A stretch of 64,000 nt of DNA, taken from Patescibacteria group bacterium. GTDB lineage: Bacteria > Patescibacteriota > Patescibacteriia > UBA9934 > GWF2-40-263. Of the stretch, positions 32,674 through 61,602 are shown in pieces. The notes under the pieces were generated by a model, which was not told the origin of the DNA, ran no database searches, and worked only from the letters and a program-made list of their open reading frames with translations. The first letter of the stretch is position 1. Each line of letters opens with the position of its first letter. Both the position numbers and the translations under genes were made by a program. The stretch is taken from contig JAHJAM010000002.1 in assembly GCA_018814025.1 (NCBI GenBank), positions 2,798 to 66,797 on the forward strand, in the 5' to 3' direction.

Positions 32674-32786
32674 ACGCCGTGCAGTCGGCGTTTGATTCTT
32701 CATGCATTCGAGGGTTCGGGATTTTAAGATCGAATGTTTTTCTGTTATGATGCTTTTGACAAGGCTGAGAGCCAAAGCTAGAAAAC

Positions 32787-42314: not shown

Positions 42315-44315
<2,001 letters not shown>

Positions 44316-44326
44316 GGTATAAGGGT

Positions 44327-44698: not shown

Positions 44699-44730
44699 TA
44701 CCCTACCTACTTTTGCCCTACCTCCTATTT

Positions 44731-45036: not shown

Positions 45037-45043
45037 ATATACA

Positions 45044-45130
45044 GACCCCCTCCCAGCCTCCCCCTTGGTAAGGGGGAGGAGTAACCGAGGGTTCCCCTTC
45101 CTTACCAAGGAGGGGGTTAGGGGGAGGTCT
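45044..45130. repeat. GC-rich double hairpin / imperfect inverted repeat between gatC and gatA
   Basis: The two elements are CCCCCTTggtAAGGGGGAGG and CCCCTTCCTTaccAAGGAGGGGG. The outer arms gaccccctcccagcctcc and ggagggggttagggggaggtc pair to give a cruciform-capable element. Confidence 0.6.
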
Positions 45131-46586: not shown

Positions 46587-47227
46587 GTATGCCGGCCACG
46601 CATTTTTTTAAAACTAATCAGCCGGCCACGCGATTAATCGCCCAAGGTTTATTTTGGGCGTTTATTGTTTTAGCGATTCTGATGCAATTGGGCTGGATTG
46701 ACGTGGTGGATCATAACCAGGAATGGTTTTTAGTGTATATGCTCTTGCTGTCGGCTTTGGGTATGATGGGGCCGTTTATTATCGTTAATTTGATCCGCCC
46801 ATTGCGTGCTCGGATCACTGAGCAAGCGTTAGGTTTGATGGAGATGCTGGCGGGCGCGGCCATGGTGGCATCTTGGATTGGGGCCTTCGGCTTGTATCGC
46901 GACGGATTTGGCTATGATACTTTCGTGCATTTTTTTGCCTCCTTATGCTTGGTTTTGATCTTCGGTATAGCGCTGACGGTCTTTCCATTTTTTGCCAAAC
47001 GCGTTTGGCTGCTGCTTCTGCTGGTGGTGGTTTTGACTTTGCTGGGCGGGTTGCTCAATGAGATGTTTGAATATGCGGGCGATTTGCTGTTTACGACCAT
47101 GATGTACGGGGAAGCGGGCCAGCCGGATGACACGCTGCGGGATTTAATCGGCAATAGCGTGGGTGCGGTCATCGGCGTGGTAGTTTTGTATTTCGTCCGC
47201 GAGCGGTTGAATAAATATCTAGGTTAA
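46565..47227 (+). CDS. hypothetical integral membrane protein (in place of gatB)
   Basis: 5-6 TM segments; the start overlaps the gatA end, and an alternative ATG lies at 46589. Confidence 0.45.
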   Translation: MAQENTISMPATHFFKTNQPATRLIAQGLFWAFIVLAILMQLGWIDVVDHNQEWFLVYMLLLSALGMMGPFIIVNLIRPLRARITEQALGLMEMLAGAAMVASWIGAFGLYRDGFGYDTFVHFFASLCLVLIFGIALTVFPFFAKRVWLLLLLVVVLTLLGGLLNEMFEYAGDLLFTTMMYGEAGQPDDTLRDLIGNSVGAVIGVVVLYFVRERLNKYLG

Positions 47228-47240
47228 TCATATTGAGAGT

Positions 47241-47363
47241 AATTCGTCATTGCGAGGAGGGAGTGATTTATCGACTGACGAAGCAATCGCACGTCATATC
47301 ACGCAAATGATTAAACTTGAGATTGCTTCGCTACGACTGGCGACTTCGCTCGCAATGACTAAT
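47241..47363. repeat. structured repeat element, copy 1 (~120 bp) directly upstream of lgt
   Basis: It shares aattcgtcattg(c/t)gagga(g/a)ggagt...atcgactgacgaagcaat...cttgagattgcttcgct...cgctcgc(a/c)atgac with copy 2 at 61047-61155. It has terminal inverted repeats GTCATTGCGAG/CTCGCAATGAC and an inner pair CGAAGCAATC/GATTGCTTCG. Confidence 0.7.
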
Positions 47364-47367
47364 CCAT

Positions 47368-48126
47368 ATGATTCCATACTTTACGGCCACAACTTTTCAT
47401 CTCGGTCCGATCCCGATTCAGGTTTGGGGAACTTTGGTGGCTCTGGGAATTTTAGCCGGCACTTTTGCTTCGGCTTGGCTGGCTAAGCAACGAAAGCAAG
47501 ACGCGGGCTTGATTTGGGATTTGGCCACTTGGGTGATTCTAGGTGCTTTTGTCATGGCGCGCGTGTTTCATGTGTGGCTTTATAATTTCGATTATTATGC
47601 GGCTGATCCGACCAAGATATTCGTGATTTGGGAAGGCGGCTGGTCGATCATCGGTGGTTTTTTGGGGGCGGTCTTAGCCGGCGCATGGTATTTAAAAAAA
47701 CGCCAAGTGAATTTTGGGGAGTATGCGGACACCACAATTTTTGGTTTGCCTTTAGGCTTGTTCATCGGACGGATCGGATGCTTTTTGATTCATGATCATC
47801 CGGGCAAGATCACGAATTTCTTTTTGGGCGTGCAGTATCCGGATGGAATCATTCGCCACGATCACGGATTATATTTGTCCTTAAGCGGTTTGGGTTTGTT
47901 TGCGGCGTATCTGATTATGTGGAAATTGAAAATTGAAAAAGGATTGTTGCTGCCGGTATTTTTGTTGTGGTATGGGGCAGTCAGATTCGTTTTGGATTTT
48001 TATCGAGCCACGGACGGGTTGATTGTGGATGCCAGATATTGGGGTTTGACTCCGGCTCAGTTCGCGTCTTTGTTTATGATAGTGCTGGGGATAACTTTAT
48101 TAATAAGAAAAAGGAAGCATATTTAA
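47368..48126 (+). CDS. lgt: prolipoprotein diacylglyceryl transferase
   Basis: Typical Lgt N-terminus with HLGPIPIQVWG, the Lgt signature G..I(G)R.G.F.N.E in GLFIGRIGCFLIHDHPG, and 7 TM segments. Confidence 0.9.
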   Translation: MIPYFTATTFHLGPIPIQVWGTLVALGILAGTFASAWLAKQRKQDAGLIWDLATWVILGAFVMARVFHVWLYNFDYYAADPTKIFVIWEGGWSIIGGFLGAVLAGAWYLKKRQVNFGEYADTTIFGLPLGLFIGRIGCFLIHDHPGKITNFFLGVQYPDGIIRHDHGLYLSLSGLGLFAAYLIMWKLKIEKGLLLPVFLLWYGAVRFVLDFYRATDGLIVDARYWGLTPAQFASLFMIVLGITLLIRKRKHI

Positions 48127-48235
48127 TCACTGTCAAGGAATCAAAAATTTTTTATAAAAGCCTCTTAATAAGGGCTTTTTTCATATGCTTGTGGATAACT
48201 TGATAAATAAAGATAAATACGCTATGGTGGAAATA

Positions 48236-48548
48236 GGCAAGGGATTAGGTTGCAGGCCCATATTCCACAGCCAAACCGGCTTAGGGTAGGTCAACCCTAA
48301 GTTGGGTAGAACTGCCGCTGTCCGTTACTAGGAATAAGCGGTGGTGCGATCCGCACAAGCTCCGTGTTCTGGCCACACTCAGTACTGGTTCCTCGGCCAG
48401 CTGCTACCTGAAGCAGTCATCGCCCGGGTTTCCGACCTCTGAAGGGGATTTGGAAACGCGGGAGATAAGAGTGAAGATGTACACGGAGCTGGCGGAGACC
48501 AAATCCAAACAAAAAACACCCGACTGAGGTCGGGCGTTTTTTATTGCA
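48236..48548 (+). ncRNA. candidate structured non-coding RNA of unknown class (~310 nt)
   Basis: This is the largest ORF-free stretch in the window on both strands, and it is GC-rich. A TTGATA-18-TATGGT promoter lies upstream (48200-48229), and the region ends in a strong hairpin plus T-run terminator (48518-48543). It contains multiple internal helices, for example CTTAGGGT-aggtcaa-CCCTAAG, GTGCG-atc-CGCAC and CTGGCC...GGCCAG. The strand assignment is tentative. Confidence 0.35.
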
Positions 48549-48555
48549 TATTTTG

Positions 48556-48957
48556 TCAGCCAAAAATAGTTCCCCAAAATCCTTTTTTGGTTCTGCCTGG
48601 CTTTTCCTCTTTTTTCAGGGGTTGGGATAGGGGATTAACATAAGTTGAGATGTATTGCCCGATTCTGGCCATTTCTTGCTCAACTAGCTGGCCGTCGTAA
48701 TCAGCCGAGTGGGCATGGGCGGATTGGCTGTAAGTGGCTTTTTTTTGGTCCAAGTGCAGATTGAGCTCAATTCCGTCGCCTTTAAGCGCGTAGTAAAGAT
48801 GGAATTGCGGAAATGCCGCATTGGTGAAACGTCGGGTATAGCTGATTTGGCCTTTGAAGCCGGGCTTTTCGCCGTAGCCGGCCCGGCGCAGTAAGTTGCG
48901 GGGATTGTCCGGTAACGGGCCGGGGAGATATTGTTTCATACCTTGCCATGATAGCAT
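48556..48957 (-). CDS. hypothetical protein (ORF-track call truncated at N-terminus)
   Basis: The ORF-track version (to 49083) runs antisense across tRNA-Ser, and its N-terminus 'EGFEPS' is simply the T-arm read backwards. The gene was shortened to the first ATG downstream of the tRNA. Even the shortened gene is a weak call. Confidence 0.3.
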   Translation of the reverse strand: MLSWQGMKQYLPGPLPDNPRNLLRRAGYGEKPGFKGQISYTRRFTNAAFPQFHLYYALKGDGIELNLHLDQKKATYSQSAHAHSADYDGQLVEQEMARIGQYISTYVNPLSQPLKKEEKPGRTKKGFWGTIFG

Positions 48958-48993
48958 ATTTTCGCTACAATTCCGCCAGACCTGTAATAACCA

Positions 48994-49082
48994 GGAGAGG
49001 TCGCATAGTTGGTCTAGTGCGCACGCTTGGAAAGCGTGTATACCGCAAGGTATCGAGGGTTCGAATCCCTCCCTCTCCGCCA
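48994..49082 (+). tRNA. tRNA-Ser (anticodon GGA) with long variable arm
   Basis: Acceptor GGAGAGG/CCTCTCC, D-arm GCAT..GTGC, anticodon stem CACGC/GCGTG with loop TTGGAAA, a 16-nt variable arm, T-arm GAGGG-TTCGAAT-CCCTC, discriminator G and encoded CCA. Confidence 0.85.
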
Positions 49083-49187
49083 AAAAATTCTCTGTTGAAA
49101 GCAGGGGATTTTTTATTTAGGTCAACGGCATTGTTTACGATCGTGAGTTTTACCGTCGATGAGGTATGTATGTTAGAATAAGAATAC

Positions 49188-49541
49188 ATGAAGCAATTAA
49201 CACCCGAGGAACAAGAAGTGATTCTGAATAAAGGCACGGAGCCGGCCGGATCCGGTCAATATGATCGGTTCTTTGAGTCCGGGACTTATAAGTGCAAACA
49301 ATGCGGTGCGGAATTGTATCGGTCGGATGATAAGTTTGACGCGCACTGCGGGTGGCCGAGTTTTGATCAGGAGATCGCGGGTGCAGTCAAGCGCCTGCCG
49401 GATGCGGACGGCCTGCGCACGGAAATTCAATGTACCAAGTGCGGCGCGCATTTGGGACATGTTTTTGAAGGCGAACATATGACTGATAAGAATGTCAGGT
49501 ATTGTGTGAATTCCGTGAGTCTTGATTTCGAGAAGAAATAA
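49188..49541 (+). CDS. msrB: peptide-methionine (R)-S-oxide reductase
   Basis: Two CxxC zinc motifs (CKQCGAEL, CTKCGAHL) and the active-site HLGHVF..E. Confidence 0.9.
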   Translation: MKQLTPEEQEVILNKGTEPAGSGQYDRFFESGTYKCKQCGAELYRSDDKFDAHCGWPSFDQEIAGAVKRLPDADGLRTEIQCTKCGAHLGHVFEGEHMTDKNVRYCVNSVSLDFEKK

Positions 49542-49542
49542 T

Positions 49543-50067
49543 ATGGTTCAAGTAATTGTTTTGGGCGGCGGATGCTTTTGGTGTACGGAAGCCGTATTTC
49601 AAAAGATAAAGGGGGTAACGAAAGTTGAATCTGGTTATGCGGGCGGGGAAGCGGCCAATCCCACTTATGAACAAGTTTCCACGGGCGAAACCGGGCACGC
49701 GGAATGCGTGCGCGTGGAATACGACGCCGATCAAGTCGGCTTGAATAAAATTTTGGATGTTTTTTTCGCCGTTCATGATCCCACGACCTTAAATCGACAA
49801 GGGAATGATGTGGGTACGCAGTATCGCTCAATTATTTTTTGGACTGAGCCGGAACAAGAAAAGGCAATTAAAGATTATTTGATTAAGGTTCAGGATGAGT
49901 TTAAAGATCCGGTGGTGACTGAAGTCGAAAAACTAGATATGTTTTATCCGGCCGAGGACTATCACGAGGATTATTACAACCAGAACAAAAGCAAGATGTA
50001 TTGCCGGCTGGTGATCTCGCCCAAGCTGAAGAAGGTTGAAGAGAAATTTGCCGATTGGCAAAAGTAA
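49543..50067 (+). CDS. msrA: peptide-methionine (S)-S-oxide reductase
   Basis: GGGCFWCTE active-site motif. The start was re-set to an ATG 2 nt after the msrB stop. Confidence 0.9.
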   Translation: MVQVIVLGGGCFWCTEAVFQKIKGVTKVESGYAGGEAANPTYEQVSTGETGHAECVRVEYDADQVGLNKILDVFFAVHDPTTLNRQGNDVGTQYRSIIFWTEPEQEKAIKDYLIKVQDEFKDPVVTEVEKLDMFYPAEDYHEDYYNQNKSKMYCRLVISPKLKKVEEKFADWQK

Positions 50068-50069
50068 AT

Positions 50070-51092
50070 ATGTCTTTGAGCAAAAACGAACAAGCGCTTT
50101 TGCGCCGGATTCATGTGGCTTCGGAAAATGATCCGCTCAAGCCGGAGTTCCCGCCCCATGACCCAAAATTTCCGGCCACCCCCACTTACCGAATTAAAGT
50201 GCCGGGTTTTTCCAATGTTTGGCTCAAAGATGAAAGCCACAATCCCACGGGCACGCACAAGGATCGAATGGCTTGGGAAATCGTGGTGACATATAAAGAT
50301 TTCTTGTTGGCGAAGAAAAGCGGCCAGATCAAGACGCCGCTGCCAGCCATGTCATTGATTTCTTCCGGGTCGGCGGCCGTGGCGATTCAAAGCCAGTTGC
50401 GCATGCATGGTTTGCCGGATTTAAGAGTACTGGTGGATCGGAAGCTTAATTCGGCAACTGTCAGAATTTTGGAAAAATTGGGCTGCCGGATTTATTTCAC
50501 GGATTTAAAACGCAAGCCTTTTCATTGGCGGGAGATATTGCGTTTGACCGATAATCCGAACGGCTTTGACATCACTTCCGCCGAAGCTTTGGATCCGACG
50601 ACGCGCTTTTACGACTGGTTGAGCTACGAGATCATCAATTCCTCGCCGGATTATTGTTTTATGCCCTTTGGCACAGGAAATTTGTTCGAGAATGTTTTGA
50701 ATATCAATAAAAGGGAAGTTTCCACCAAGCACCATGATCCGCGATTCAAAGGCAAAGTCCAAGTCTTGCGGCGCTGTAATTTTTTAGCGGCCACCACGAA
50801 TAATCCGCAATCTAAAGCCGATAAGCTTTTTTCCCAGCATCTGCCGTTCGTTCATTATGATGAACAATGGATTCGCCTTTATCGTTGCGCCGGTTTTTGC
50901 GGACCCGAGTCCAATGTTCATTTAATTAAAGAAAAATATTTGGAGCAAGCCATGAAGCTGGCAGCTGCCCAGGGCATTAATTGCGAGCCTTCCGGCGTGG
51001 CGGGTCTGGGCTTGTTGCTGCAGCTGCGACCGAAGATTCCCAAAACGAAAAAAATATTAATTGTCAGTACCGGAAAAACAACATTTTTATAA
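50070..51092 (+). CDS. PLP-dependent enzyme, fold type II (threonine synthase / cysteine synthase-like)
   Basis: NPTGTHKDR corresponds to the PTGSFKDR PLP-lysine motif of the PALP family. Confidence 0.55.
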   Translation: MSLSKNEQALLRRIHVASENDPLKPEFPPHDPKFPATPTYRIKVPGFSNVWLKDESHNPTGTHKDRMAWEIVVTYKDFLLAKKSGQIKTPLPAMSLISSGSAAVAIQSQLRMHGLPDLRVLVDRKLNSATVRILEKLGCRIYFTDLKRKPFHWREILRLTDNPNGFDITSAEALDPTTRFYDWLSYEIINSSPDYCFMPFGTGNLFENVLNINKREVSTKHHDPRFKGKVQVLRRCNFLAATTNNPQSKADKLFSQHLPFVHYDEQWIRLYRCAGFCGPESNVHLIKEKYLEQAMKLAAAQGINCEPSGVAGLGLLLQLRPKIPKTKKILIVSTGKTTFL

Positions 51093-51134
51093 ATTAAAAA
51101 TCCTCCGGCCTAAACCGGAGGATTATGGTTTTAA

Positions 51135-51887
51135 TTATTTTTTAACCGGAGCTTTGACTGCCTCGTAGTTTAAGAACATCACCACGAAAGCCACGGTGCT
51201 GAAGGCATAAATTACGTCCGCGGCCGTCATGGTGACAATATCGGTCACATAGTGGGCCGGAACAACGATATAAATAATATCCGGAAGCCAACTGGCAATG
51301 AAAGTGAATATGCCAATCACCAGCGTAAGGCCGAAAGTGCGCCACCAGCGGCCTTTGACCAGTTGGTAGCTGTAGTGCAGAGCGTCCAGGCCGGTTTTTT
51401 CTCTGAAGAGCAAGGCATGAATCACAAACAAGTAACTGACGGCCATGAAAATGCCGGGCAGGATCAGGAGGATAGTGGCCAAGCTGATGATTATTCCGGA
51501 CACGATTTGAATCCAAATAGCTTTGGGCCAAACCGGCAAAATGTTTTTTATGGCCTCGGTCCATTCGATTTCTTTTCCGGAGGAGCCGGATCCGGCTTTG
51601 CCGGATTTATCTATCCAGGCTTTAACCACTGAGGCGACGGCTAAGGTGGCGACCGTGCCCAGGATCAATTCCAAAAATGATTCCCAGCGGAATAAAGTGG
51701 TGAAATCGGATAAATCATCAAAATTCGGGGTCGGGGTAAAATATAGAATAATGTTCAGCGGAATGTAGACCGCTAAAGTAATGTAGAGAATTTTGGTGAA
51801 ATTTTCTCGGTAAGCTCCCCAAGATTTAGTGAGCAGAGTTTTTAAGGAATACATTCCCTTGGGCGCACTTGAGGTTTTGGCGGGCAT
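51135..51887 (-). CDS. hypothetical integral membrane protein
   Basis: 250 aa with about 6 TM segments and a Gly/Ser-rich loop. Confidence 0.45.
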   Translation of the reverse strand: MPAKTSSAPKGMYSLKTLLTKSWGAYRENFTKILYITLAVYIPLNIILYFTPTPNFDDLSDFTTLFRWESFLELILGTVATLAVASVVKAWIDKSGKAGSGSSGKEIEWTEAIKNILPVWPKAIWIQIVSGIIISLATILLILPGIFMAVSYLFVIHALLFREKTGLDALHYSYQLVKGRWWRTFGLTLVIGIFTFIASWLPDIIYIVVPAHYVTDIVTMTAADVIYAFSTVAFVVMFLNYEAVKAPVKK

Positions 51888-51889
51888 AG

Positions 51890-52684
51890 TTATTTTTTAC
51901 TTAAGAAATTCAAGATTTTTTTGGCTGAGAAAATAATTGATTTGGCCGGACTGTTTATTTTCGCCGCGGGTTTGGCGGCGCGATCAGCTTGCTTTTGTTC
52001 TTTTTTCAACCGTGTGTCTTCTTTGTTCACGGCTTTATCCGCCACGCCGCGTTTGACGTAGAGGCTCATGAGCAAGAAGATAATCATGCTGCCAAAAATG
52101 ATGGTGGCGATGTTGATCAGGAGCAAAATCAGAGCACTGCCGGCTAAGGCGCCGTCCAGCCGAGCCAGGCCAATGCCCACGGCGGAAATCGGCGGAATTA
52201 AAGCCACGGAAATGGCCACGCCCGGCAAGTGGGCCGAGAGTTGAGGTTTGATGAGGGCGAAAGACGCGGCAATGCCGGCCAGGAGGCCGATGGCCGCGGC
52301 CACGATTGAAGTGTCGGTGCGCAAGATAATTTCCTCGGTCATGGGGCCGGAAATGCCGTCGGAAAATAGCCAGGTGGCCAAAATGGCGGCCGGGATCATC
52401 AACAATAAACCTTTGAGGATGGTGAAGAAGGATCGAGCCATTAAGTGCGCATCAAACATGATGATACCCAATGACAAACTCAGGATCGGCGAAAGCAAAG
52501 GGGCGATGAGCATGGAGCCGATAACCACGGCCGCGTTGTTCATGAGCATGCCGAAGGTGGCCATGAGCACGGCCAAGATCCCCATAAAAAAGAAATCATC
52601 GCGCGGCGTTGAGTCCGCGATGAGCGATTCAATGGCTGTGTTTTTATCCTCCTCGGAAAGGGAGCGGAAAAGCGTAACCGCCAT
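51890..52684 (-). CDS. DUF389-family membrane protein
   Basis: GSMLIAPLLSPILSLSLGI is a DUF389 signature. The start was re-set to the ATG at 52684. The upstream extension in the ORF track is simply the dispersed repeat motif translated. Confidence 0.55.
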   Translation of the reverse strand: MAVTLFRSLSEEDKNTAIESLIADSTPRDDFFFMGILAVLMATFGMLMNNAAVVIGSMLIAPLLSPILSLSLGIIMFDAHLMARSFFTILKGLLLMIPAAILATWLFSDGISGPMTEEIILRTDTSIVAAAIGLLAGIAASFALIKPQLSAHLPGVAISVALIPPISAVGIGLARLDGALAGSALILLLINIATIIFGSMIIFLLMSLYVKRGVADKAVNKEDTRLKKEQKQADRAAKPAAKINSPAKSIIFSAKKILNFLSKK

Positions 52685-52763
52685 AATATAAATATTATAA
52701 CATAGGAAGTAGGGGAGAAGTAGGTGGGGTGAAAATAAAATATCTGATATACTTATTATCAAT

Positions 52764-53720
52764 ATGCTGACAAATATACTTGTATTGATTGCCGGATTTA
52801 TTCTTTTAATTCGCGGCGCGGATTATTTGGTGAAGGGCGCGGCTTCCATGGCGCGGCGCCTGGGCGTGCGCGCGTTTGTGGTGGGTTTGACGGTGGTGGC
52901 TTTCGGCACTTCGGCGCCCGAGCTGGTAGTTAACGTTTTGTCCGCCACTTCCGGATCAACCGGTTTGGCTTTGGGCAATGTTTTGGGTTCCAATTTGGCA
53001 AATATCCTTTTGATTCTTGGAATTGCCGCGATCATTTCGCCCGTGATTTTGCATCGGGGAACGGTTTGGAAAGAATTACCGCTGTTGCTTTTGGCTTCAG
53101 TGCTGGTCGTGGTCTTGGGCAGCGATATTTTTTTTGACGGCTCTTTTAGCAACATTATTTCTCGGATTGACGGAATCGTTCTGCTTTCTTTTTTTGTCAT
53201 CTTTTTATATTACACGCACGGTGCCAGCAAAGGGCAATCTGATGAACATGAACAAATTGATGTGTATGATAAGAAGAGAACCGCTATTTATTTGATCGGC
53301 GGCTTGGCGGGTTTAGCTTTGGGCGGCAAATTCATTGTGGATTCGGCTGTGTTTATCGCTCAGGCTTTCAGCGTATCCGAACATGTGATCGGGGCCACGA
53401 TTGTGGCCGTGGGCACTTCGCTGCCGGAATTGGCCACCACTATCGTGGCGGCCATAAAAAAACACACGGACATTGCCGTGGGCAATGTGGTGGGCTCCAA
53501 TTTGTTCAACGTTTTTTTCGTGCTGGGCACGACCGTGGTTATTCGGCCTTTAGCTTTTGACCACGCGGCCTGGCAGGATGCAATGATCGTTTTGGGCATT
53601 ACTTTGATTCTCTTTATGTCTTTGTTCGTGGGCAAGCGGCATCATTTTGAAAAATGGCAAGGCGTCACATTTGTGGGGATGTATCTGGCGTATATCGTGT
53701 TTTCAGTTTTTAGGGGGTAG
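52764..53720 (+). CDS. Ca2+/cation antiporter (CaCA family, YrbG-like)
   Basis: Two alpha-repeat motifs, GTSAPELVVNV and GTSLPELATTIVAA. The stop TAG is embedded in GGTAGGTAGGGAA. Confidence 0.85.
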   Translation: MLTNILVLIAGFILLIRGADYLVKGAASMARRLGVRAFVVGLTVVAFGTSAPELVVNVLSATSGSTGLALGNVLGSNLANILLILGIAAIISPVILHRGTVWKELPLLLLASVLVVVLGSDIFFDGSFSNIISRIDGIVLLSFFVIFLYYTHGASKGQSDEHEQIDVYDKKRTAIYLIGGLAGLALGGKFIVDSAVFIAQAFSVSEHVIGATIVAVGTSLPELATTIVAAIKKHTDIAVGNVVGSNLFNVFFVLGTTVVIRPLAFDHAAWQDAMIVLGITLILFMSLFVGKRHHFEKWQGVTFVGMYLAYIVFSVFRG

Positions 53721-53810
53721 GTAGGGAAATCGTCGGTAGGGCAAAGGGGCCTCGCGGCCTCTTTTTGTGTCTTGAATATTCAGGCTAAACAAGGCAAGCT
53801 AGTGATACCT

Positions 53811-55598
53811 ATGGATCAAAAAGATGAGATCAAACAAAAAGTGGATGTGGTGGAGCTGATTTCCGAATATGTTCAGCTCAAACCCGCGGGCAGTAATTCG
53901 TTTAAGGCCTGTTGCCCGTTTCATACGGAAAAGACGCCGTCTTTTCAGGTTTCCGGAGAAAAGCAAATTTGGAAATGCTTCGGCTGCGGCGAGGGTGGGG
54001 ACTGTTTTGAGTTTTTGATGAAAATGGAAGGCTTGGATTTTCCCGAAGCCTTGCGGCACTTAGGCAATCGGGTGGGGATTGAGGTTAAACGTTTCACCTC
54101 GGAAACCAGCAATGTCAGCCAGCGCTTGTCAGCCATGAATGATCTGGCCAGCAAGTTTTATCAAAAAGTGTTATTGGATTCTCCGGCCGCGCAAGCAGCC
54201 CGGGATTATCTGACCAAACGCGGTATCGGCCAGGAATTGCGAGATAAGTTCGGCATCGGGTTTGCCCCGGATGCCTGGGAAACCTTGTCGACATTTTTGT
54301 TGAAGAGGGGATTTTCCGCCAGCGAGGGCGTGCAAGCCGGTTTGATGATGAATCGGCGCCAGGGCAGCGGCGTGATTGATCGGTTTCGCAATCGCATAAT
54401 GATCTCTTTGCGCGACGCGCACGGCAACACCGTGGGTTTTACCGGCCGGCAAATGCCGGGCGATGAACACGGGCCCAAATACATGAATTCGCCTGAGACC
54501 CCAATTTATCATAAAGGAAAATTGTTGTTCGGTTTGGATTTGGCCAAGCGAGCGATTAAAGAGCGGGGAAGCGTAATTATTGTGGAAGGAAATTTAGACG
54601 TGGTGGCTTCGCATAAAGCCGGGGTGGAGAACGTGGTGGCTTCATCCGGCACGGCTTTGACCCAAGATCAACTGACATTTTTGAAACGCTACACCAAGAC
54701 CATTGTTTTTTCTTTTGATGCGGACGCGGCCGGTTTTAACGCGGCTTACAAGGGCATTAATCTGGCCCGGGAATTGGATTTAGACGTCCGAGTAGTGGTT
54801 TTACCCAAGGAGGCGGGCAAGGATCCGGATGAGGCGGTTCAAAAAGATCCGGGCATTTGGCAGCGGGCCGCGGCCAGTACCAAGCCGATCATGCAATATT
54901 TTATCGATCAAGCCGTGGCCGGCAAGAATTTAGATAATGTGGATGATAAAAAAGCCATGGCCGCGTTTTTATTGCCGGAGCTGGCTAAAATTAGCGATTT
55001 GGTGGAACGGGAACATTGGCTGCAACTAATTAGTGATTTATTGCGGACGGATATGGGAGTTTTGCGCCTAGCCGTGGGGCGCACGCCGCAAAAATCGGTG
55101 GAAAAACCGGTTGAGAAAACCCAGGCGCCGCCGGCTAAGTTATCAAAAACTCAACAGGCCGAGGAATATATTATCGGCTGTTTTATTCAGGATCAGGCTT
55201 ATCGCAGTCAAATCATTAAGGAATTGGAGGCCGAACATCTTTCCTCTGATTTGTTGAAGAAACTTTACAAAGAATTGGTTTCGCTATATAATCAGCCCGA
55301 ATCAGAAACCTCTTTACAAAAATCATTTTATTGGCGTGTACGCGATCAACTCGAAAAATCTGCGGATAATCAAACCTTGATTCCGCTTCTTGACACAATT
55401 AGTCTTCGAGGCGAACAAATGGTCGCAAATTTATCACCCAACGAGGTTTCCCGACAATTGAAGCAACTTTTGCAAATAATAATTTCCGCGGACGTGAAGG
55501 AACGGCGCGGAGATTTAGCTGCCCGGATTCGCCAGGCCGAGAGCCGGGGCGATCAACAAGCCGTGCAGCGCTTAATCGCTGAATACAATGAGCTCTAA
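53811..55598 (+). CDS. dnaG: DNA primase
   Basis: Zinc ribbon CCPFHTEKTPSF, and a TOPRIM domain with EGNLDVV. Confidence 0.9.
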   Translation: MDQKDEIKQKVDVVELISEYVQLKPAGSNSFKACCPFHTEKTPSFQVSGEKQIWKCFGCGEGGDCFEFLMKMEGLDFPEALRHLGNRVGIEVKRFTSETSNVSQRLSAMNDLASKFYQKVLLDSPAAQAARDYLTKRGIGQELRDKFGIGFAPDAWETLSTFLLKRGFSASEGVQAGLMMNRRQGSGVIDRFRNRIMISLRDAHGNTVGFTGRQMPGDEHGPKYMNSPETPIYHKGKLLFGLDLAKRAIKERGSVIIVEGNLDVVASHKAGVENVVASSGTALTQDQLTFLKRYTKTIVFSFDADAAGFNAAYKGINLARELDLDVRVVVLPKEAGKDPDEAVQKDPGIWQRAAASTKPIMQYFIDQAVAGKNLDNVDDKKAMAAFLLPELAKISDLVEREHWLQLISDLLRTDMGVLRLAVGRTPQKSVEKPVEKTQAPPAKLSKTQQAEEYIIGCFIQDQAYRSQIIKELEAEHLSSDLLKKLYKELVSLYNQPESETSLQKSFYWRVRDQLEKSADNQTLIPLLDTISLRGEQMVANLSPNEVSRQLKQLLQIIISADVKERRGDLAARIRQAESRGDQQAVQRLIAEYNEL

Positions 55599-55644
55599 CC
55601 AATTCCTATAGTTAAAAGAGGTCTTGCTCGTTGTTTTTGTTTTT

Positions 55645-56907
55645 ATGTCAAAAGATATTAAGAAGTCCGGCAAAGCCGGAGCCGGCTCCGCTGGAAAATC
55701 AGCAAAAAAGTGGAAACCTTCAGTTAAGCATGGTTCGGCCAAGCGGCCGAGGCATCAGGGGGGGAAGTCCGGGAAAGTCGGAAAAAAAGTGGTTAAAAAA
55801 GAACGCTATGCGCGCGCTTTGCCGCCAGCTCAGTCAGTGATTGACCGGCTGTTGACCAAAGGGGCGTCTCGCGGCTTCGTGACCGAGAACGAGGTGCTGT
55901 TTGCTTTTCCCGATGTCGAAGATTACATGAAAGTTTTTGATGATTTTTTGGATGAATTGGAACGGATTGGCGTACACTTTGTGGAAATGAAAGAAGGTAT
56001 CTTGGGCCGTGAGCAAGATCGAGATGACGTATACGATAAAATCCGCGTCAGCCGAGACAAGAAACGATCTGATATTCCGGAAATCAGTCAAGATTCGATT
56101 CAAATGTATTTGCGGGAAATCGGCAAAATTCCATTGTTAACCGGCGAAGAAGAAGTGGCTTTGGCTAAACGCAAAGAACGCAATGAAAAAGAAGCTGAGC
56201 GCCGTTTAATCGAAGCGAACTTGCGTTTGGTGGTTTCCATTGCCAAAAAGTTTGTGGGTAAGCAAATGTCTTTGTTGGATTTAATTCAAGAAGGCAACAT
56301 CGGCTTGTTCCGAGCGGTTAAAAAGTTCGAATATCGCAAAGGCTATAAGTTTTCCACTTATGCGACCTGGTGGATTCGCCAGGCCATTACCCGGGCTTTG
56401 GCTGACCAGTCGCGAACTATTCGCATTCCCGTGCATATGGTGGAAACCATTAACCGCTTCATGCAGATCGAACGCCAATTGATTCAAGACTTGGGCCGCG
56501 AGCCTCTGCCCGAGGAAATTGCCGCGGAAATGAGTGAAACCATTGAAAAGGTTTTGCATATCCGCAAGATTTCCCAAGATACAGTGTCGCTGGAAACTTC
56601 AGTGGGTGATGATGACGAAGATTCCAAGCTGGAAGACTTTATCGAGGATACTAAGTCGATTTCACCGGATCGAGCAGCCGCGCGCGAATTATTGAAGGAC
56701 TATGTGCACGAAGGCATGAAGGATTTGAGTCCGCGCGAGCAAAAGATTCTGGAAATGCGATTTGGTCTGACTGACGGCGTAAGCCATACCTTGGAAGAAG
56801 TGGGTAAGGAGTTTGATGTGACGCGCGAGCGCATTCGGCAAATTGAAGCAAAAGCCTTAGAAAAGATTCAAGCGCACCAGATTATTGGGAAGTTAAGGGA
56901 TTATTGA
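55645..56907 (+). CDS. rpoD: RNA polymerase sigma factor RpoD
   Basis: Regions 1.2 through 4 ([11 protein letters not shown], the [10 protein letters not shown] region 2, and [12 protein letters not shown] region 3). The start is ambiguous: the alternatives are TTG 55624 and ATG 55645. Confidence 0.9.
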
Positions 56908-56936
56908 AAAACAGGCCTTCGGGCCTGTTTTTTGGT
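56908..56936 (+). terminator. rho-independent terminator
   Basis: aaaaacaggccttcgggcctgtttttt. Confidence 0.6.
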
Positions 56937-57060
56937 ATGCAACCATTTTGTTTTAAATGCGATATACTATATGCACAGCGAAAGAATTAATGCAGACAAA
57001 GCACATGAAGCATGAGGTGTGAAAGGTGGGGTATCATCATGATGCGTCACGTTTCACGCT

Positions 57061-57708
57061 ATGTGCTCAAACAAACATATGGAAAATGAGGAGGTAATTG
57101 TCCTTGAAGCCAAAACCAATCCCGAGGCTTTCGGGCGGCTATACGACATGTATTATCAGCCAATTTTTGCTTTTGTGTTGAGCCGGATCGGAAATGTTGA
57201 GGTTTCAAAAGACATTTGCAGCGAAACTTTTTTTCAGGCTCTAAAGAACATTTCTAAATACAAGCCCAAAGGCCGCCCCTTTAAATCATGGCTGTTTGCC
57301 ATTGCCGTGGCTCAGGTGGGGAATTACTATCGCAAACGCTCTAAAATGTTGGCTATCACGATCGATGAATGTCCGGAATTGGTGGCCGCCGATATTTATC
57401 AACCTGATTTCAGTGCCATCGAAGATGAAACGGAATTGGAAATCAAGGAACAAGTTGTGCAATTGCGCCGATTGATGGGGCAGTTGAATCAAAAACAGCA
57501 AACAATTTTGACTTTGCGTTATTTTTCTCACATGACGATTCCGGAAATATCGCAAGTTATCAAAATGAAGGAAGGAACGATTAAATCACATTTGCATCGG
57601 GCACTGAAGAAATTGCACGTATTAATGACCGAAGAAGATCTAAAAAACGAATATGACTCAGCGGGAGCCACTCAATCTCGAACAGCTTTTGGAGTGTCTG
57701 GGGTCTAA
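57061..57708 (+). CDS. ECF-type sigma factor (second copy)
   Basis: Sigma70 region 2 (FGRLYDMYYQPIFAFVLSRIG...FF) and region 4 (LTLRYFSHMTIPEISQVIKMKEGTIKSHLHRAL). Confidence 0.75.
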   Translation: MCSNKHMENEEVIVLEAKTNPEAFGRLYDMYYQPIFAFVLSRIGNVEVSKDICSETFFQALKNISKYKPKGRPFKSWLFAIAVAQVGNYYRKRSKMLAITIDECPELVAADIYQPDFSAIEDETELEIKEQVVQLRRLMGQLNQKQQTILTLRYFSHMTIPEISQVIKMKEGTIKSHLHRALKKLHVLMTEEDLKNEYDSAGATQSRTAFGVSGV

Positions 57709-58066
57709 CGAGACTCCGGGCGATTCTCATCATCGATACGCGCTTCGGCGGGCCCTGTTGAAATCTCGCTGCTTCGAGGTCAATCAAATTACGGCTAAGT
57801 GGCTGAGATTGTTTACTTTAACTACTTCGGCCGTGGCCGGCGGAGCCGTGGCCGTGGCTTTTGTGCTGGTGGTGCAAACAACTTTAACCATGGATATCGA
57901 AGATCGTTCGCATACAGCCAGAAATTCATTAGCCAGTGAGAATCGGAATCTGCGCCCCATGGAATTAATCAATCAAATGAAAGTGGCGGAAATCAATGAG
58001 ATGGTTCCTTATGATGATTTGCGAAAGGTTTTTATCAAAGATATTGATTTGGCTTTTACTCGATAA
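57653..58066 (+). CDS. putative anti-sigma factor or membrane protein downstream of ECF sigma
   Basis: It overlaps the sigma gene by 56 nt in another frame. It has one TM (LTTSAVAGGAVAVAFVLVV), and the start is uncertain. Confidence 0.3.
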   Translation: MTQREPLNLEQLLECLGSNETPGDSHHRYALRRALLKSRCFEVNQITAKWLRLFTLTTSAVAGGAVAVAFVLVVQTTLTMDIEDRSHTARNSLASENRNLRPMELINQMKVAEINEMVPYDDLRKVFIKDIDLAFTR

Positions 58067-58112
58067 ATCCAGGTTAACGACGTCCATCCGCCTTACTTAA
58101 GGCGGATTTTGG

Positions 58113-58832
58113 ATGCTTGACAAATCCGCGTTTGCGTGCCTCAATAGGCAGGTTCCGAACCCGGAGGATGCAATGGTTGCAGCAACAAGGGATTCAGGAC
58201 TCGCGGCTTTGGATCAACGGATGGAAGAATGTTCTCTGGCTATTCGTCGTTTTGACCGTAAGATTAGCCAAGCTAAGCTCGCGACTCTGGTCGGACGGCT
58301 GCGCCCGGTCATGAAATCATTGGTGCAAGAAAGTTTTTTTCGGCGCGACGCCAGCCGGCCTGATTTAGCGGAACTGGGCTTGGCTTTGGCCTCAATCTTA
58401 GAAAAGCCGGTGCGTAAGATTATCCCGGTGTCAGCCAGGCACGGTCTCGTCTCATCCGAAGGCGAAAATTTTGGTGGACCGTGCGAGGACGCGGCCATCT
58501 GGAAAACCAAGCTCTATCAGATTTACGCCAAGCACGAGATGTGGCTTTGGCCGCTGATCAGCAACCATGACAGCCTGCACTGCGGCTATGAAGGGCTGCG
58601 GCGTCTGTTCCTTAATGAAATCAGTAGACAAGCGCCAAATCGTCTGGAAGCCATGCTGCATGAGACCGCGGATGCCATGGTTTGGTCCATTGATTTTTAT
58701 CTGGCCTTCGCCTTGGCCAACAATCAGCGCTGTCTGGATTATTTCGGACGATTGATCCAGCAGTTCCCGGCCGCGGTGCCAGTGCGCGAGCGGCGTAACC
58801 GTTCCGGCGAGTGGTATGTGATCGTCCGATAA
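58113..58832 (+). CDS. hypothetical protein (GC-rich)
   Basis: 239-aa ORF flanked by hairpin terminators at 58091-58118 and 58837-58870. It is more GC-rich than its surroundings. Confidence 0.4.
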   Translation: MLDKSAFACLNRQVPNPEDAMVAATRDSGLAALDQRMEECSLAIRRFDRKISQAKLATLVGRLRPVMKSLVQESFFRRDASRPDLAELGLALASILEKPVRKIIPVSARHGLVSSEGENFGGPCEDAAIWKTKLYQIYAKHEMWLWPLISNHDSLHCGYEGLRRLFLNEISRQAPNRLEAMLHETADAMVWSIDFYLAFALANNQRCLDYFGRLIQQFPAAVPVRERRNRSGEWYVIVR

Positions 58833-58870
58833 CTCAGGCCCTGGGAAATCCCGGGGCTTTTTTGTTTGTT

Positions 58871-59120
58871 CCGCGAATATGTTATAGTTGAAGCAGCTCC
58901 TCATGACGCTGAATTTGGGCTAAATACTTGCCTAGAGCTTGGAGCCGCGTCGACCGTGGTTGGCGCGTGAGAGCTCAGCAGAGAAGCAGATTTCTATCGA
59001 TACTTCGTAAGAACTATCGAGCGAATGAAGTGCCCTTCGGGGTGTTCTCAATTATCATCTAGCCAAGTATCAGCGCGTGTGGAGTTTAAAAAACACCCTC
59101 GGTGACGAGGGTGTTTTTCA
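58871..59120 (+). ncRNA. candidate small RNA (~220-250 nt) between two terminators
   Basis: The region has no ORF on either strand. An upstream TTTGTT-16-TATAGT candidate promoter is present. There is an internal GCCC-TTCG-GGG(T) hairpin, and a terminator aaaaaacaccctcg-gtga-cgagggtgttttt lies at 59088-59120. Confidence 0.25.
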
Positions 59121-59152
59121 TTCACATATGATGCGATCGCATCATATGTGAA
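59121..59152. repeat. 32-bp perfect palindrome TTCACATATGATGCGATCGCATCATATGTGAA
   Basis: Perfect dyad with a GCGATCGC core (HIP1-like octamer), immediately after a terminator. Confidence 0.8.
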
Positions 59153-59156
59153 TGTT

Positions 59157-59519
59157 TTATTCGTAACAATGTTTGGATTTGAGATAATCAGTCAGCGACG
59201 GAGCCGCGCCGGCTTTAATTTCATCCACTCGATTTTGTCCTAAGGCTTCGACTGAACAAGCTTCTTGTGTCGGAGTGACCTGGGTGGGGATGTCTTGCGG
59301 ATCGATCCCGACTGATTCCAGCATTATTTCCTGTTCGGTATTTAAAAGCGGATGATCGTAAGCACTTTCCGTGGGCGGGCTGATCAGCGCTTTGGGAATT
59401 TGGGTCACATTGATGCCAAAAGGTTTGACAATTGCCAGAACCACGATGGCGACGATGAATAAGACAATCAGCCCGGCCGCGATTATTCCCAGAATCATCA
59501 GGATTTTTTTCATATTCAT
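59157..59519 (-). CDS. hypothetical membrane-anchored protein
   Basis: N-terminal TM (ILMILGIIAAGLIVLFIVAIVVLAIV) followed by a soluble tail. Confidence 0.45.
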   Translation of the reverse strand: MNMKKILMILGIIAAGLIVLFIVAIVVLAIVKPFGINVTQIPKALISPPTESAYDHPLLNTEQEIMLESVGIDPQDIPTQVTPTQEACSVEALGQNRVDEIKAGAAPSLTDYLKSKHCYE

Positions 59520-59524
59520 AAATC

Positions 59525-59902
59525 TTAATTATTAACGACACTCAGGACATCGATATAAAAAGTTGAACCTTGCGGACTTTTTACTTCAAGGGCGTCGGCA
59601 AGATTAATGGTTCCTTGACCGCGGCTATTTTCGAATAGTTGTTTGCCATTTCGAACATATAGGACATTGGCTTGAGCAAAGAGCGGGATTTTTTTAATAT
59701 CCTGATTGGCCAGCGTCACGAAAAGGTTTCCGGCCTGATCGGTTGACCATTCGGCTTGAATGGTTTCACGGCCAATGAATAAAATTTCGTTTTCGCTTTG
59801 AAAGATGCCGTTATCGTAGTGCGGGGCGGTAAACTCGGCTTGCTGATCGGTACAGCCGGCGCCGAGAGTCACCAGGAGAGCAAAAATGAGAAAGTAGCGC
59901 AT
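59525..59902 (-). CDS. putative lipoprotein
   Basis: The re-set start MRYFLIFALLVTLGAGC gives a lipobox (L-G-A-G-C), and a TATAAT box lies upstream on the minus strand. Confidence 0.45.
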   Translation of the reverse strand: MRYFLIFALLVTLGAGCTDQQAEFTAPHYDNGIFQSENEILFIGRETIQAEWSTDQAGNLFVTLANQDIKKIPLFAQANVLYVRNGKQLFENSRGQGTINLADALEVKSPQGSTFYIDVLSVVNN

Positions 59903-59967
59903 AAAAAAAAGATAAATGATTGATTGGAATATTATAGCATCTTCCGGCGTTTTTTCTGAGACAAGGT

Positions 59968-59996
59968 TTGACAATTAGGGAATCATGACTCATAAT
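59968..59996 (+). promoter_or_regulatory. rlmN promoter TTGACA-17-CATAAT (near-leaderless)
   Basis: Consensus -35 and good -10 with 17-nt spacing. The -10 ends 8 nt before the rlmN ATG (60005), which implies a leaderless or very short-leader mRNA. Confidence 0.45.
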
Positions 59997-60004
59997 CAGG
60001 CGTT

Positions 60005-61033
60005 ATGTTGAATCGTTTGGAAACAATCAAAGAGCTGTTCCCCAAGGCCCAGAATTTCCGTCTCAAGCAAATTGAGTGCGCGGTTTTTGATGCCGCAATT
60101 TCCGGCTGGGAAGAAGTGACCACTTTACCGCAAGCGGATCGCCAGCTATTGATCGAAAAAGTGCCGTGGGTTTCATATCGGGCCGCGGAGACTTTTGGGG
60201 ATATCGAAGACGATGTCATCAAAGCGCTTTTGACTTTGTCGGATGATGCCAAGATTGAAACCGTGCTGATGCGCAATCGGCGCGGGCACTGGAGCGTTTG
60301 CGTTTCCACACAAGTGGGCTGCGCCATGCGCTGCGTTTTTTGCGCCACGGGCAAGATGGGGTTGAAACGTAATTTAACTTCGGATGAGATTGTGGATCAG
60401 CTGCGGTTTTGGCAAAAGTATTTGCTGACAAATTTGGGTGATGAGGAACGGATTACTAACGTGGTGTACATGGGGATGGGCGAGCCAATGAATAATTATG
60501 AAGCCGTCAAAGATTCTTTAAACCGAATTTTGCTGAACACGGAAATCGGGGAAACGCGGATTACGGTTTCCACGGTTGGCGTGCTGCCGCGCCTGGATCA
60601 AATTTTGGATGATGAAGATTGGCCGCCGGTGCGTTTGGCTATTTCCTTGCACAGCGCGCAAAATGAGGTGCGGAAACAATTAATGCCGTCTTCTTATGAT
60701 GATTTTTTGCCTAAACTGGCAGATTGGGCTCGGCGCTATAATCAGAAATTCGGCAATCGCCGCCATCATTTAACTTTTGAATATATTATGTTGGCGGGCG
60801 TGAATGACAGTTCGCAAGCGGCCGAGGCTCTAGCGGATTATGTGCTTAAAATTGATAATGTGCGCGTTAACTTGATTCCATATAACGCCAGCGGCGCGGA
60901 TTATGAAGGCAGTTCCGAAGAAACTTTAGAGCGGTTCATGTCGGTCTTGGAACAGAGGGATGTAACCGTGACCGTGCGCCGGTCGCAAGGCCAGGAGATC
61001 GCCGCGGCCTGCGGACAATTAGCCGGAAAATAA
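60005..61033 (+). CDS. rlmN: 23S rRNA/tRNA (adenine-C2)-methyltransferase, radical SAM
   Basis: CVSTQVGCAMRCVFCATG matches the Cx3Cx2C motif, together with the C-terminal Cys. Confidence 0.9.
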   Translation: MLNRLETIKELFPKAQNFRLKQIECAVFDAAISGWEEVTTLPQADRQLLIEKVPWVSYRAAETFGDIEDDVIKALLTLSDDAKIETVLMRNRRGHWSVCVSTQVGCAMRCVFCATGKMGLKRNLTSDEIVDQLRFWQKYLLTNLGDEERITNVVYMGMGEPMNNYEAVKDSLNRILLNTEIGETRITVSTVGVLPRLDQILDDEDWPPVRLAISLHSAQNEVRKQLMPSSYDDFLPKLADWARRYNQKFGNRRHHLTFEYIMLAGVNDSSQAAEALADYVLKIDNVRVNLIPYNASGADYEGSSEETLERFMSVLEQRDVTVTVRRSQGQEIAAACGQLAGK

Positions 61034-61046
61034 AAATCAGCCTTAT

Positions 61047-61155
61047 AATTCGTCATTGTGAGGAAGGAGTTTCAATCGACTGACGAAGCAATTTTGAATG
61101 ACTTGAGATTGCTTCGCTCGATAAATTACTCGCTCGCCATGACGAAGAATTTCTG
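61047..61155. repeat. structured repeat element, copy 2
   Basis: See copy 1. Its 3' portion supplies the last ~10 codons and the stop of the minus-strand gene 61126..61602. Confidence 0.7.
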
Positions 61156-61602
61156 GGGCTGATTGTATATTTGAGTAAAATCACTGACGATTTGCGGTTT
61201 CATACCCAGGATTTCTTCCCGATAATCCAGATCCGGGATCTCGAACATCAGATAAATCGGCTTTTGCAAATGGCAGGCCAGGCCCATTTCCATGAGTGTG
61301 TTGGCGCCGATGTAGCCTTTGATGCCTCTTTTTTCGTAATTGGTCACGACGATTATGTCTGACCAAATCACTTTGTCGAAATGAGCGCGCATGGAGCGTT
61401 CTTTTTGGTCCCAAACCCAAGCGGCATCATCGCCGGATTCTTTTCGAAGTTTATAATAATCCGCCACGGCCATGGGCCGGCCGTCCGGTCCAGGGATTTC
61501 GTGCGGTGGCAGGCGAACTTCGTGGCCCAGCTCTTCGAGTTGTTTTTGCGCGGCCAGCATTTCATTGTAAAAAGCAATGCTGCCGCAAAGCGTGATTTTC
61601 AT
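61126..61602 (-). CDS. nucleoside 2-deoxyribosyltransferase-like protein (putative)
   Basis: MKITLCGS...DIIVVT...GANTLMEMGLA...KPIYL parallels the NDT fold and the catalytic Glu region of Lactobacillus NDT (GLGMELGYA). Confidence 0.35.
   Translation of the reverse strand: MKITLCGSIAFYNEMLAAQKQLEELGHEVRLPPHEIPGPDGRPMAVADYYKLRKESGDDAAWVWDQKERSMRAHFDKVIWSDIIVVTNYEKRGIKGYIGANTLMEMGLACHLQKPIYLMFEIPDLDYREEILGMKPQIVSDFTQIYNQPQKFFVMASE

Follow-up and report, generated by a model that had tools for sequence, protein, structure and literature searches.

Two palindromic repeats in the window

The stretch of DNA analysed here (64,000 nt, hereafter the window) comes from a metagenome-assembled genome (MAG) of a member of the Patescibacteria, or candidate phyla radiation (CPR), and holds two copies of a palindromic element. 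Copy 1 lies between a DUF2238 gene and lgt, in the gene order gatC, gatA, DUF2238, lgt, and copy 2 lies between the convergent genes rlmN and an NDT-like gene. A first-pass annotation had reported two hairpin-forming repeat copies at these sites, which is borne out by the shared blocks, inverted repeats and predicted folds described here, and had offered two labels for them, a miniature inverted-repeat transposable element (MITE) and a small structured RNA.

The core of copy 1 occupies positions 47244–47361 of the plus strand, with a CGTC head at 47245–47248 on the left and, on the minus strand, AGTC as the head on the right. Its outer stem, P1, is formed by the left arm GTCATTGCGAG (47246–47256) and the right arm CTCGCAATGAC (47349–47359); the inner stem, P3, is formed by CGAAGCAATC (47279–47288) and GATTGCTTCG (47321–47330); and the left arm holds a mini-hairpin, P2, at 47262–47276 (AGTGA-TTTA-TC(G)ACT when folded alone). 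The core of copy 2 (61050–61145, plus strand) carries a CGTC head at each end. Its outer stem pairs GTCATTGTGAG (61052–61062) with CTCGCCATGAC (61133–61143), with one T-C mismatch and one G-T pair, its inner stem pairs CGAAGCAAT (61084–61092) with ATTGCTTCG (61108–61116), and the mini-hairpin in its left arm, again folded alone, is AGTT-TCAATC-GACT (61068–61081). From outer stem to outer stem the copies span 114 and 92 nt, respectively.

The window holds exactly two occurrences of each of the blocks ATCGACTGACGAAGCAAT and CTTGAGATTGCTTCGCT, with no extra matches even when up to three mismatches are allowed (chance expectation 0.05 and 0.22), and TTCGTCATTGYGAGGA forms the left end of both copies, its near reverse complement forming the right end of both. 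The identity of ~85% first reported for the pair fits only the blocks, which are 92–100% identical; over the aligned elements the mean column identity is 78%, and the global identity is 70%. Each copy is predicted to fold into one long nested hairpin, at −47.3 kcal/mol for copy 1 and −41.3 kcal/mol for copy 2 as RNA, and these folds lie far below those of shuffled sequences both as RNA (z = −5.8 and −6.4, respectively) and as DNA (z = −4.4 and −4.2 for the two copies). A Pfam search of the six-frame peptides of the element returned nothing, a literature search with its DNA and peptide strings returned primer coincidences at most, and a literature search on palindromic intergenic repeats in Patescibacteria returned nothing relevant.

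Sites of the two copies

The site of copy 1 can be compared with that in a relative (L146/L147, ~78% nucleotide identity), which has the same order gatC, gatA, DUF2238, lgt. In that relative DUF2238 and lgt overlap, stop with start (ATGA), whereas in the window copy 1 fills a spacer of 140 nt between them; because L146 has overlapping genes at that site, copy 1 is an insertion, and the comparison places it at a gene junction of a compact operon. This bears out one part of the transposition-derived reading in the first-pass annotation, namely that the element was inserted. The gap between gatC and gatA likewise differs, measuring 17 nt in L146 vs 104 nt in the window, where it is filled by an unrelated nested palindrome, AGACCCCCTCCCAGCCTCCCCCTTGGTAAGGGGGAGGA ... 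TCCCCTTCCTTACCAAGGAGGGGGTTAGGGGGAGGTCT (45043–45130). A third arrangement is seen in L151, whose DUF2238 protein is 69% identical: at its gatA-DUF2238 junction, which measures 2 nt in both the window and L146, it carries a different TGTC-tagged palindrome, TGTCATTCCGACGGAGC ... GCTCTGCTCAGGATGACG (1531–1635 of L151; fold −51 kcal/mol). Different palindromes thus sit at the gatC-gatA, DUF2238-lgt and gatA-DUF2238 junctions, which have therefore been colonised independently, and this comparison provides the best evidence here that such elements are mobile. An element similar to the one between gatC and gatA, CCCCT...GGTAAGGGGGAGG, lies at the start of L151, upstream of gatA.

Copy 1 can be extended by a further outer stem, in which AATCATAT (47226–47233, plus strand), beginning within the DUF2238 stop codon TAA (47225–47227), pairs with ATATGATT (47365–47372, plus strand), which holds the lgt start ATG (47368–47370). 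The ATGATT at the lgt start is ancestral gene sequence, the lgt of L146 starting with ATGATC, and since the right arm is thus ancestral lgt sequence we leave this stem out of the element. In a transcript of copy 1, the DUF2238 stop and the lgt start would come to lie at the base of one predicted hairpin.

A sister assembly (L140) has an identical copy 2 at the corresponding site, and a short-read Logan contig (L141) ends inside it. The NDT-like protein beside it has 158 amino acids in the window vs mostly 146–150 in its homologs, the excess being a 12-residue tail, NQPQKFFVMASE. The last 12 codons and the stop (61126–61164, minus strand) are missing from the closest homologs, P0002 and P0003, and the stretch that encodes FVMASE and the stop (61126–61146) is the reverse complement of the right arm of the copy 2 core. 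A further 8-bp outer stem, formed by AATCAGCC (61034–61041, plus strand), directly after the rlmN stop that ends at 61033, and GGCTGATT (61159–61166, plus strand), whose minus strand encodes N-Q-P of the NDT-like tail, encloses all 12 extra codons; the fold thus extended reaches −55.2 kcal/mol (z = −8.2). Comparison with the orthologs therefore upholds the earlier claim that the element altered this protein, and indicates that copy 2 rewrote the C-terminus of the NDT-like protein, giving it the last 6 to 12 codons and the stop. No empty site for copy 2 was found, the closest NDT-like homologs differing in synteny.

A family shared by many phyla and by phages

Further copies of the element are found well beyond the source genome. 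A scan of viral contigs with a pattern of the inner stem alone (GACGAAGCAAT, 5–35 nt, GATTGCTTCG) matched 69 loci, nearly all of which have the same flanks, though these lie outside the pattern; their consensus is cGTCATTGCGAGGAGC-GAAGC-GACGAAGCAATCCAG, loop, CTGGATTGCTTCG-CTTCG-CTCGCAATGACg. With the variant pattern CTGACGAAGCAAT...AGATTGCTTCGCT, a scan limited to one genome per species gave 67 loci, and the architecture is present in at least 13 phyla. Hosts include Omnitrophota, Anaerolineales and other Chloroflexota, and Bacteroidales, Kapaibacteria and other Bacteroidota; Planctomycetes, Hydrogenedentes, Calditrichaeota, Alpha-, Gamma- and Deltaproteobacteria and Syntrophales; and a MAG of the CPR lineage Doudnabacteria, Deferribacter, Elusimicrobiota, Margulisiibacteriota, Zixiibacteriota and an Actinomycetaceae MAG. 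Both outer arms were found, with at most one mismatch, in 68 of 75 viral and 52 of 62 genome matches, the outer stem being outside the search patterns. A consensus copy also matches secondary replicons or plasmids of Novosphingobium (at least 40 places in one record), Methylosinus, Methylocystis, Halomonas and Legionella, all of them unannotated there, and one consensus arm matches a Helicobacter canis prophage.

For a covariance model, R1, we used 60 elements of other organisms and none from the window. With R1, copy 1 reaches 43.0 bits (E = 3.7e-8) on the plus strand and 21.6 bits on the minus strand, and copy 2 reaches 35.2 bits (E = 2.8e-6) and 18.5 bits, respectively, which gives both copies the same polarity; no other match in the window passes E = 0.1. 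Because the minus-strand scores are ~20 bits lower, these matches are not artefacts of composition, and because a model made from outside elements scores both copies, the window copies are diverged family members. Both thus belong to a cross-phylum family of CGTC-tagged palindromic repeats. A metagenome scan for the window's own sub-variant gave 2 loci only.

The anatomy of the family was taken from 134 distinct extracted elements, with a median length of 86 nt. These run from a CGTC or TGTC head through GTCATTGCGAG, a covarying mini-hairpin, GACGAAGCAATC and a variable loop into a mirror arm. P1 pairs GTCATTGCGAG with CTCGCAATGAC, usually with one more, covarying pair. In the left arm only, GA and then the mini-hairpin P2 follow (copy 1 has its mini-hairpin at this same site); the P2 stem has 2–12 bp and typically closes a GAA, GCA or GTA loop or a GNRA tetraloop. 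P3 pairs (C)GAAGCAATC with GATTGCTTC(G), its distal pairs varying, and the linker of the right arm is short, usually GCTNCG, although at times it forms its own hairpin or holds another nested palindrome. At each end the head is CGTC in 89/134 elements and TGTC in 38/134, and a C directly follows GCAAT. Tails are CCA (52 left, 50 right) or CTC (43 left, 51 right) in many of the 134; copy 1 has the tails CGC and CTC, and copy 2 has TTT and CTC.

Some members are elaborated further. In L029, L032, L033 and L062 (and L028), an extra module that is itself palindromic, GGAGCCTGTCATCGGGCCG ... CGGACCCGTTGGCTCGC, lies nested between outer and inner stem, in the left or the right arm depending on the copy. 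Three tandem family members each, with a period of ~157 nt and shared inter-element sequence, lie in L046 (3052–3440) and L069 (4415–4803), the inner hairpin is tandemly duplicated in L091, and L110 (Deferribacter) has adjacent copies; these tandem sets resemble arrays of bacterial interspersed mosaic elements (BIMEs).

Pairing cells make up 96.3% of a 60-sequence alignment. P2 covaries (GC 44/AU 8/GU 7 and CG 38/GC 15), as do the outermost P1 pair (CG 37/UA 9/UG 5) and three distal P3 pairs, and the covariation score, 0.155, exceeds that of shuffles (0.070) and of slid partners (0.047 or less). In sequence, the P1 and P3 cores hardly vary. Covariation of the side hairpin and of the stem edges therefore indicates that some single-stranded fold is under selection, and the alignment indicates that the primary sequence of the stems is constrained in addition. 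The earlier observation that pairing is preserved despite sequence change thus holds at the level of the family, where further homologs covary, and is weak when it is drawn from the two window copies.

Junctions, neighbours and the absence of a parent element

Elements of the family are intergenic and tight against their neighbours, mostly less than ~30 nt from genes. Where both neighbours lie within 200 nt, 41 junctions are co-directional, 12 convergent and 2 divergent, and both window copies fit this pattern. Contigs often terminate within the element. In related phage contigs, the element sits directly after the stop of a conserved ~500-aa gene, phrog_13692 (function unknown), beside a weak XkdF-like protease match. 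In the phage set (L002, L004, L008/L021, L013 and L045 vs L019, L047, L067, L022, L039, L046, L052 and L062), the polarity of the element at phrog_13692 is constant and opposite to the gene, and at the same spot sister phage contigs carry other palindromes, of the CTTCTCCCGC..GCGGGAGAAGG type or the CGTCATGCG.. type, or nothing.

Several of these traits are also those of a classical MITE, a deletion derivative of an insertion sequence mobilised by a DDE transposase that binds the terminal inverted repeats and duplicates the target site: terminal inverted repeats, small size, multiple copies, insertion polymorphism between relatives and the frequent ending of contigs within the element. Copy 1 is moreover surrounded by an imperfect 9–10-nt direct repeat, TAATCATAT (47225–47233) and TAATCCATAT (47359–47368), although this repeat does not adjoin the left inverted repeat, is partly palindromic and overlaps the ancestral lgt start. 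Across 132 family members, however, flanking direct repeats of 2–6 nt are no more frequent than under shuffled pairing (7 vs 7.5, 2 vs 2.0 and 0 vs 0.5), no pair of orphan ends enclosing transposase-sized cargo, and hence no autonomous parent, was found, and no protein family recurs beside the genome copies, the only recurring neighbours being phage structural genes among related viral contigs. In its strict sense the MITE label of the first-pass annotation therefore falls, and we regard this origin as very unlikely.

Position could equally suggest that the main role of the element is that of an intrinsic, possibly bidirectional, terminator between convergent or operon genes. Copy 2 does lie between the convergent rlmN and NDT-like genes, family members lie just past stop codons, and the phage element follows the stop of a structural-module gene at a spot where other phages have other hairpins. 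A terminator scan nevertheless called no site at either copy, no T-tract follows either copy on either strand, and most members lie within co-directional pairs, a few bases before the next start codon, so that we find a terminator function highly improbable as the main role.

A dedicated structured RNA, whether a cis-regulator or a small RNA, that contains a three-way junction and has lgt or the convergent pair as its target would account for the strong fold, for the covarying side helix and, at copy 1, for a location directly upstream of lgt with a Shine–Dalgarno-like GAGGAG in the junction and a hairpin base that buries the start codon. Against this, the complement forms the same helices, no functional strand stands out from the numbers of G-T and A-C mismatches (26 and 34 in total, p = 0.37; 16 and 7 within the conserved cores of P1 and P3), and at co-directional junctions the element shows no orientation bias (24 in the same vs 17 in the opposite polarity, p = 0.35). 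The neighbouring genes, moreover, are unrelated across many phyla and phages, and the lgt of L146 works without copy 1. Rfam at its gathering threshold matched only tRNAs in the window and in 14 viral or genome loci with family members, and a search at E <= 10 gave nothing meaningful. The second label of the first-pass annotation, a small structured RNA, accordingly finds little to sustain it, and we consider it most improbable.

Relation to known repeats

Sequences of closely similar design were described by Di Nocera, De Gregorio and Rocco (2013, BMC Genomics 14:522; PMC3733652) as CGTC-tagged repetitive extragenic palindromic (REP) sequences. According to that study, they end in a terminal CGTC (variants TGTC and CCTC), have a stem that starts with AT and comprises 8–9 bp with a 4–5-nt loop, and carry an unpaired tail with the consensus CCA; they occur mostly as inverted dimers with variable, sometimes structured spacers and often unlike partners ("heterodimers"); and they lie between co-directional or convergent open reading frames (ORFs), near the upstream stop, some overlapping or entering coding regions. 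No dedicated transposase is known for them, their members include Neisseria dRS3 and the Rickettsia palindromic elements (RPEs) RPE-4 and RPE-6, and five phyla and four CGTC families were reported (PMC3733652).

Compared by these described features, the window family agrees in its CGTC or TGTC heads (CGTC at both ends of copy 2; CGTC on the left and AGTC on the right of copy 1), in the A-T start of its stems, and in its inverted dimers of unlike arms at co-directional or convergent junctions, near the upstream stop and at times reaching into coding sequence, with no dedicated transposase beside them. The arrangement CGTC-ATTGC...GCAAT-C is present in the consensus arms of the family and in copy 1, and in copy 2 the stem starts are ATTGT and ATGGC against GCAAT. 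It differs in that an arm has a 5-bp ATTGC/GCAAT stem with an interior of 12–18 nt or more in place of the 8–9-bp stem and 4–5-nt loop, in that the conserved pairing is between the arms and not within an arm, and in its spread over 13 or more phyla, Patescibacteria included, compared with the five published.

The same geometry of two inverted units, a spacer and a long hairpin is found in REPINs, REP doublets mobilised by a single-copy REP-associated tyrosine transposase (RAYT) of the IS200-like kind, and in the REP/BIME elements of E. coli; the REPIN features used here are taken from PMC3116915 and PMC3337134. Like the window family, these doublets make no target-site duplication, are intergenic with a similar preference among junctions, and likely affect their neighbours at the RNA level whatever their orientation. 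The head of the window family is nevertheless CGTC or TGTC and not GTAG; tblastn with E. coli RayT at E <= 1 found nothing in the window or in 144 other loci, and a RayT search of element-rich replicons likewise found nothing. CGTC repeats, furthermore, never flank tyrosine-transposase genes (PMC3733652), and REPIN-RAYT systems are described as vertically inherited and lineage-specific, whereas the window family crosses phyla. That the two copies are REPINs driven by a RAYT is thus highly unlikely.

One classical unit of the CGTC-1 or NTS type, CGTCATTCCCGTGCAAACGGGAATCCAT (20495–20522, minus strand; NTS repeats are introduced below), is also present in the window, with an 8-bp stem, a GCAA loop and a CCA tail. 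It lies in frame within an ECF sigma-factor-like gene (20240–20716), where it encodes MDSRLHGNDG, a stretch that lies apparently between two sigma regions; by analogy with the Rickettsia elements, it is an RPE-like intragenic insertion. As with RPEs, elements here add codons to host proteins, namely the 12-residue tail of the NDT-like protein and the MDSRLHGNDG of the sigma-factor-like gene, although copy 2 replaces a C-terminus and does not lie within a domain, so that only the unit at 20495–20522 is truly intragenic.

Ssn nucleases as candidate readers

A relation to a second set of repeats brings in a protein. Ssn is a 94-aa GIY-YIG protein (family cd10448) that binds and cuts the NTS repeat CGTCATTCCCGCGMAVGCGGGAATCYRG and the hairpins of Ssn-related motifs (SRMs) as single-stranded DNA (ssDNA) only, and on one strand (PMC11893778; Nat Commun 2025;16:2388). 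According to PMC11893778, ssn genes are typically flanked by NTS/SRM repeats, cleavage depends on the 3 nt before the NTS palindrome and binding on the C that follows the palindrome, and the loop tolerates replacement or extension. In Neisseria, cutting of NTS repeats by Ssn limits the integration of incoming DNA. The head CGTCATT and the tail AATC(Y)(R)G of the window family are identical to those of the NTS, and the positions that govern cleavage and binding are positions conserved in the family.

An Ssn-like consensus query gave one match in the gonococcal chromosome, at 70% identity, and also matched genes annotated as "GIY-YIG nuclease family". The flanks of Ssn-like genes carry heads-outward dimers of CGTC units, and 23 Ssn-like genes of viral contigs are flanked by other CGTC or TGTC units. 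In L159–L163, the flanking unit is CGTCATCCCGC-GCGCAGCGAAGCGGAGAC-GCGGGACCCAG, and its 18-nt interior is identical to the window family's GAGGAGCGAAGCGACGAA at 12 of 18 positions, including the central GCGAAGC. L127 holds a fragment of an Ssn-like gene, 2.9 kb away from a family member and followed by an NTS-type unit.

Taken together, these results lead us to read each window copy, with a probability of about 0.7, as a palindromic DNA repeat that is not autonomous and consists of two CGTC-tagged, REP-like units in an inverted dimer, heads outward; the family to which it belongs is spread across phyla and phages. Such a dimer, related to the NTS/SRM repeats that Ssn nucleases recognise, is the better label.

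Several observations weigh against this reading. Copies 1 and 2 are no nearer to each other than to copies from other phyla, and as they are not mutually closest there is no sign of recent amplification in the source genome. Copy 2 does not have the C after its left-arm palindrome (GCAATT) and has two non-Watson-Crick positions in P1, and it may be a decaying relic. The arms of both the family and the window copies fail the SRM pattern (HGTCWYN(0-2)YYVSBRHN(0-5)WNVSBRGN(0-2)RNCYNB; PMC11893778), although the head HGTCWY and the tail RNCYNB fit, and the sole match to this pattern in the window is the unit at 20495–20522. Isolated arms, moreover, fold no better than shuffles (z = 0.5 and 0.0). 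Given arms without a fold of their own and the misfit to the SRM pattern, any Ssn substrate would be either the whole dimer or a stem of 5 bp that encloses a large interior. Regarding the nuclease itself, the 64-kb window has no Ssn-like ORF, the fragment in L127 is the single, truncated Ssn-like ORF in ~1.1 Mb around ~140 family members, element-rich replicons gave no Ssn match at E <= 1e-8, and among the 23 viral Ssn-like genes none is flanked by exactly the window family's unit. Roles of the element at the RNA level, finally, we only infer.

A dimeric, NTS-like repeat of this kind could be maintained as follows. The conserved head (C/T)GTC-ATT, the C after ...AAT and the stem cores would be kept by a trans-acting protein that reads the folded ssDNA, the best candidate being an Ssn-type GIY-YIG single-strand nuclease encoded elsewhere in the genome. 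Once inserted, the element would be transcribed within the flanking mRNAs, where a hairpin as long as this one (−41 to −55 kcal/mol) could serve as a 3'-end barrier or a processing site irrespective of its orientation.

A variant of this reading, which we hold possible though rather unlikely, would make the family a distinct, expanded-interior class of the CGTC/NTS superfamily, whose arms fold only together, into ssDNA with a three-way junction. Its cores, near-invariant from Alphaproteobacteria to Patescibacteria, would then be read by a subfamily of Ssn or by another ssDNA enzyme, phages would carry it between phyla, and in CPR bacteria, dependent on DNA uptake, it might mark or restrict incoming ssDNA.

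For the locus itself, reading the copies as CGTC-tagged repeats removes a false lead, in that copy 1 is neither an lgt riboswitch nor a new small RNA, and explains two local oddities, the 140-nt structured spacer in an otherwise overlapping operon and the 12-residue foreign tail of the NDT-like protein. It also extends the CGTC-tagged, NTS-like superfamily to Patescibacteria, to many phyla beyond the five reported in 2013 and to phage contigs, and suggests that Ssn-type single-strand nucleases could keep an 80-nt palindrome nearly unchanged across phyla. In practical terms, assemblies break at the element, and it gives rise to spurious ORFs whose peptides include RHCEERSDEAIQ, LDCFASLAMT and MDSRLHGNDG; the covariance model R1 could be used to mask it.

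Other elements in the window

Upstream of the copy 1 operon, a 123-aa gene resembling 23S_rRNA_IVP/bAvd (44327–44698; Pfam E = 1.4e-35) lies between a ligase-like gene and gatC. It is flanked by inverted repeats of ~13 nt, GTAGGTAGGGTAT and ATACCCTACCTAC, and the whole cassette so delimited (44294–44729) is missing from the syntenic relative L146.

The window also holds two copies of a perfect 34-nt palindrome, TACGArGTTTTTTACGA|TCGTAAAAAACyTCGTA, at 16079–16112 and 32641–32674, whose single difference (A/T vs G/C) recurs, mirrored, in the opposite arm. A perfect 36-nt palindrome lies at 59119–59154, and all three of these long palindromes are centred on CGATCG.

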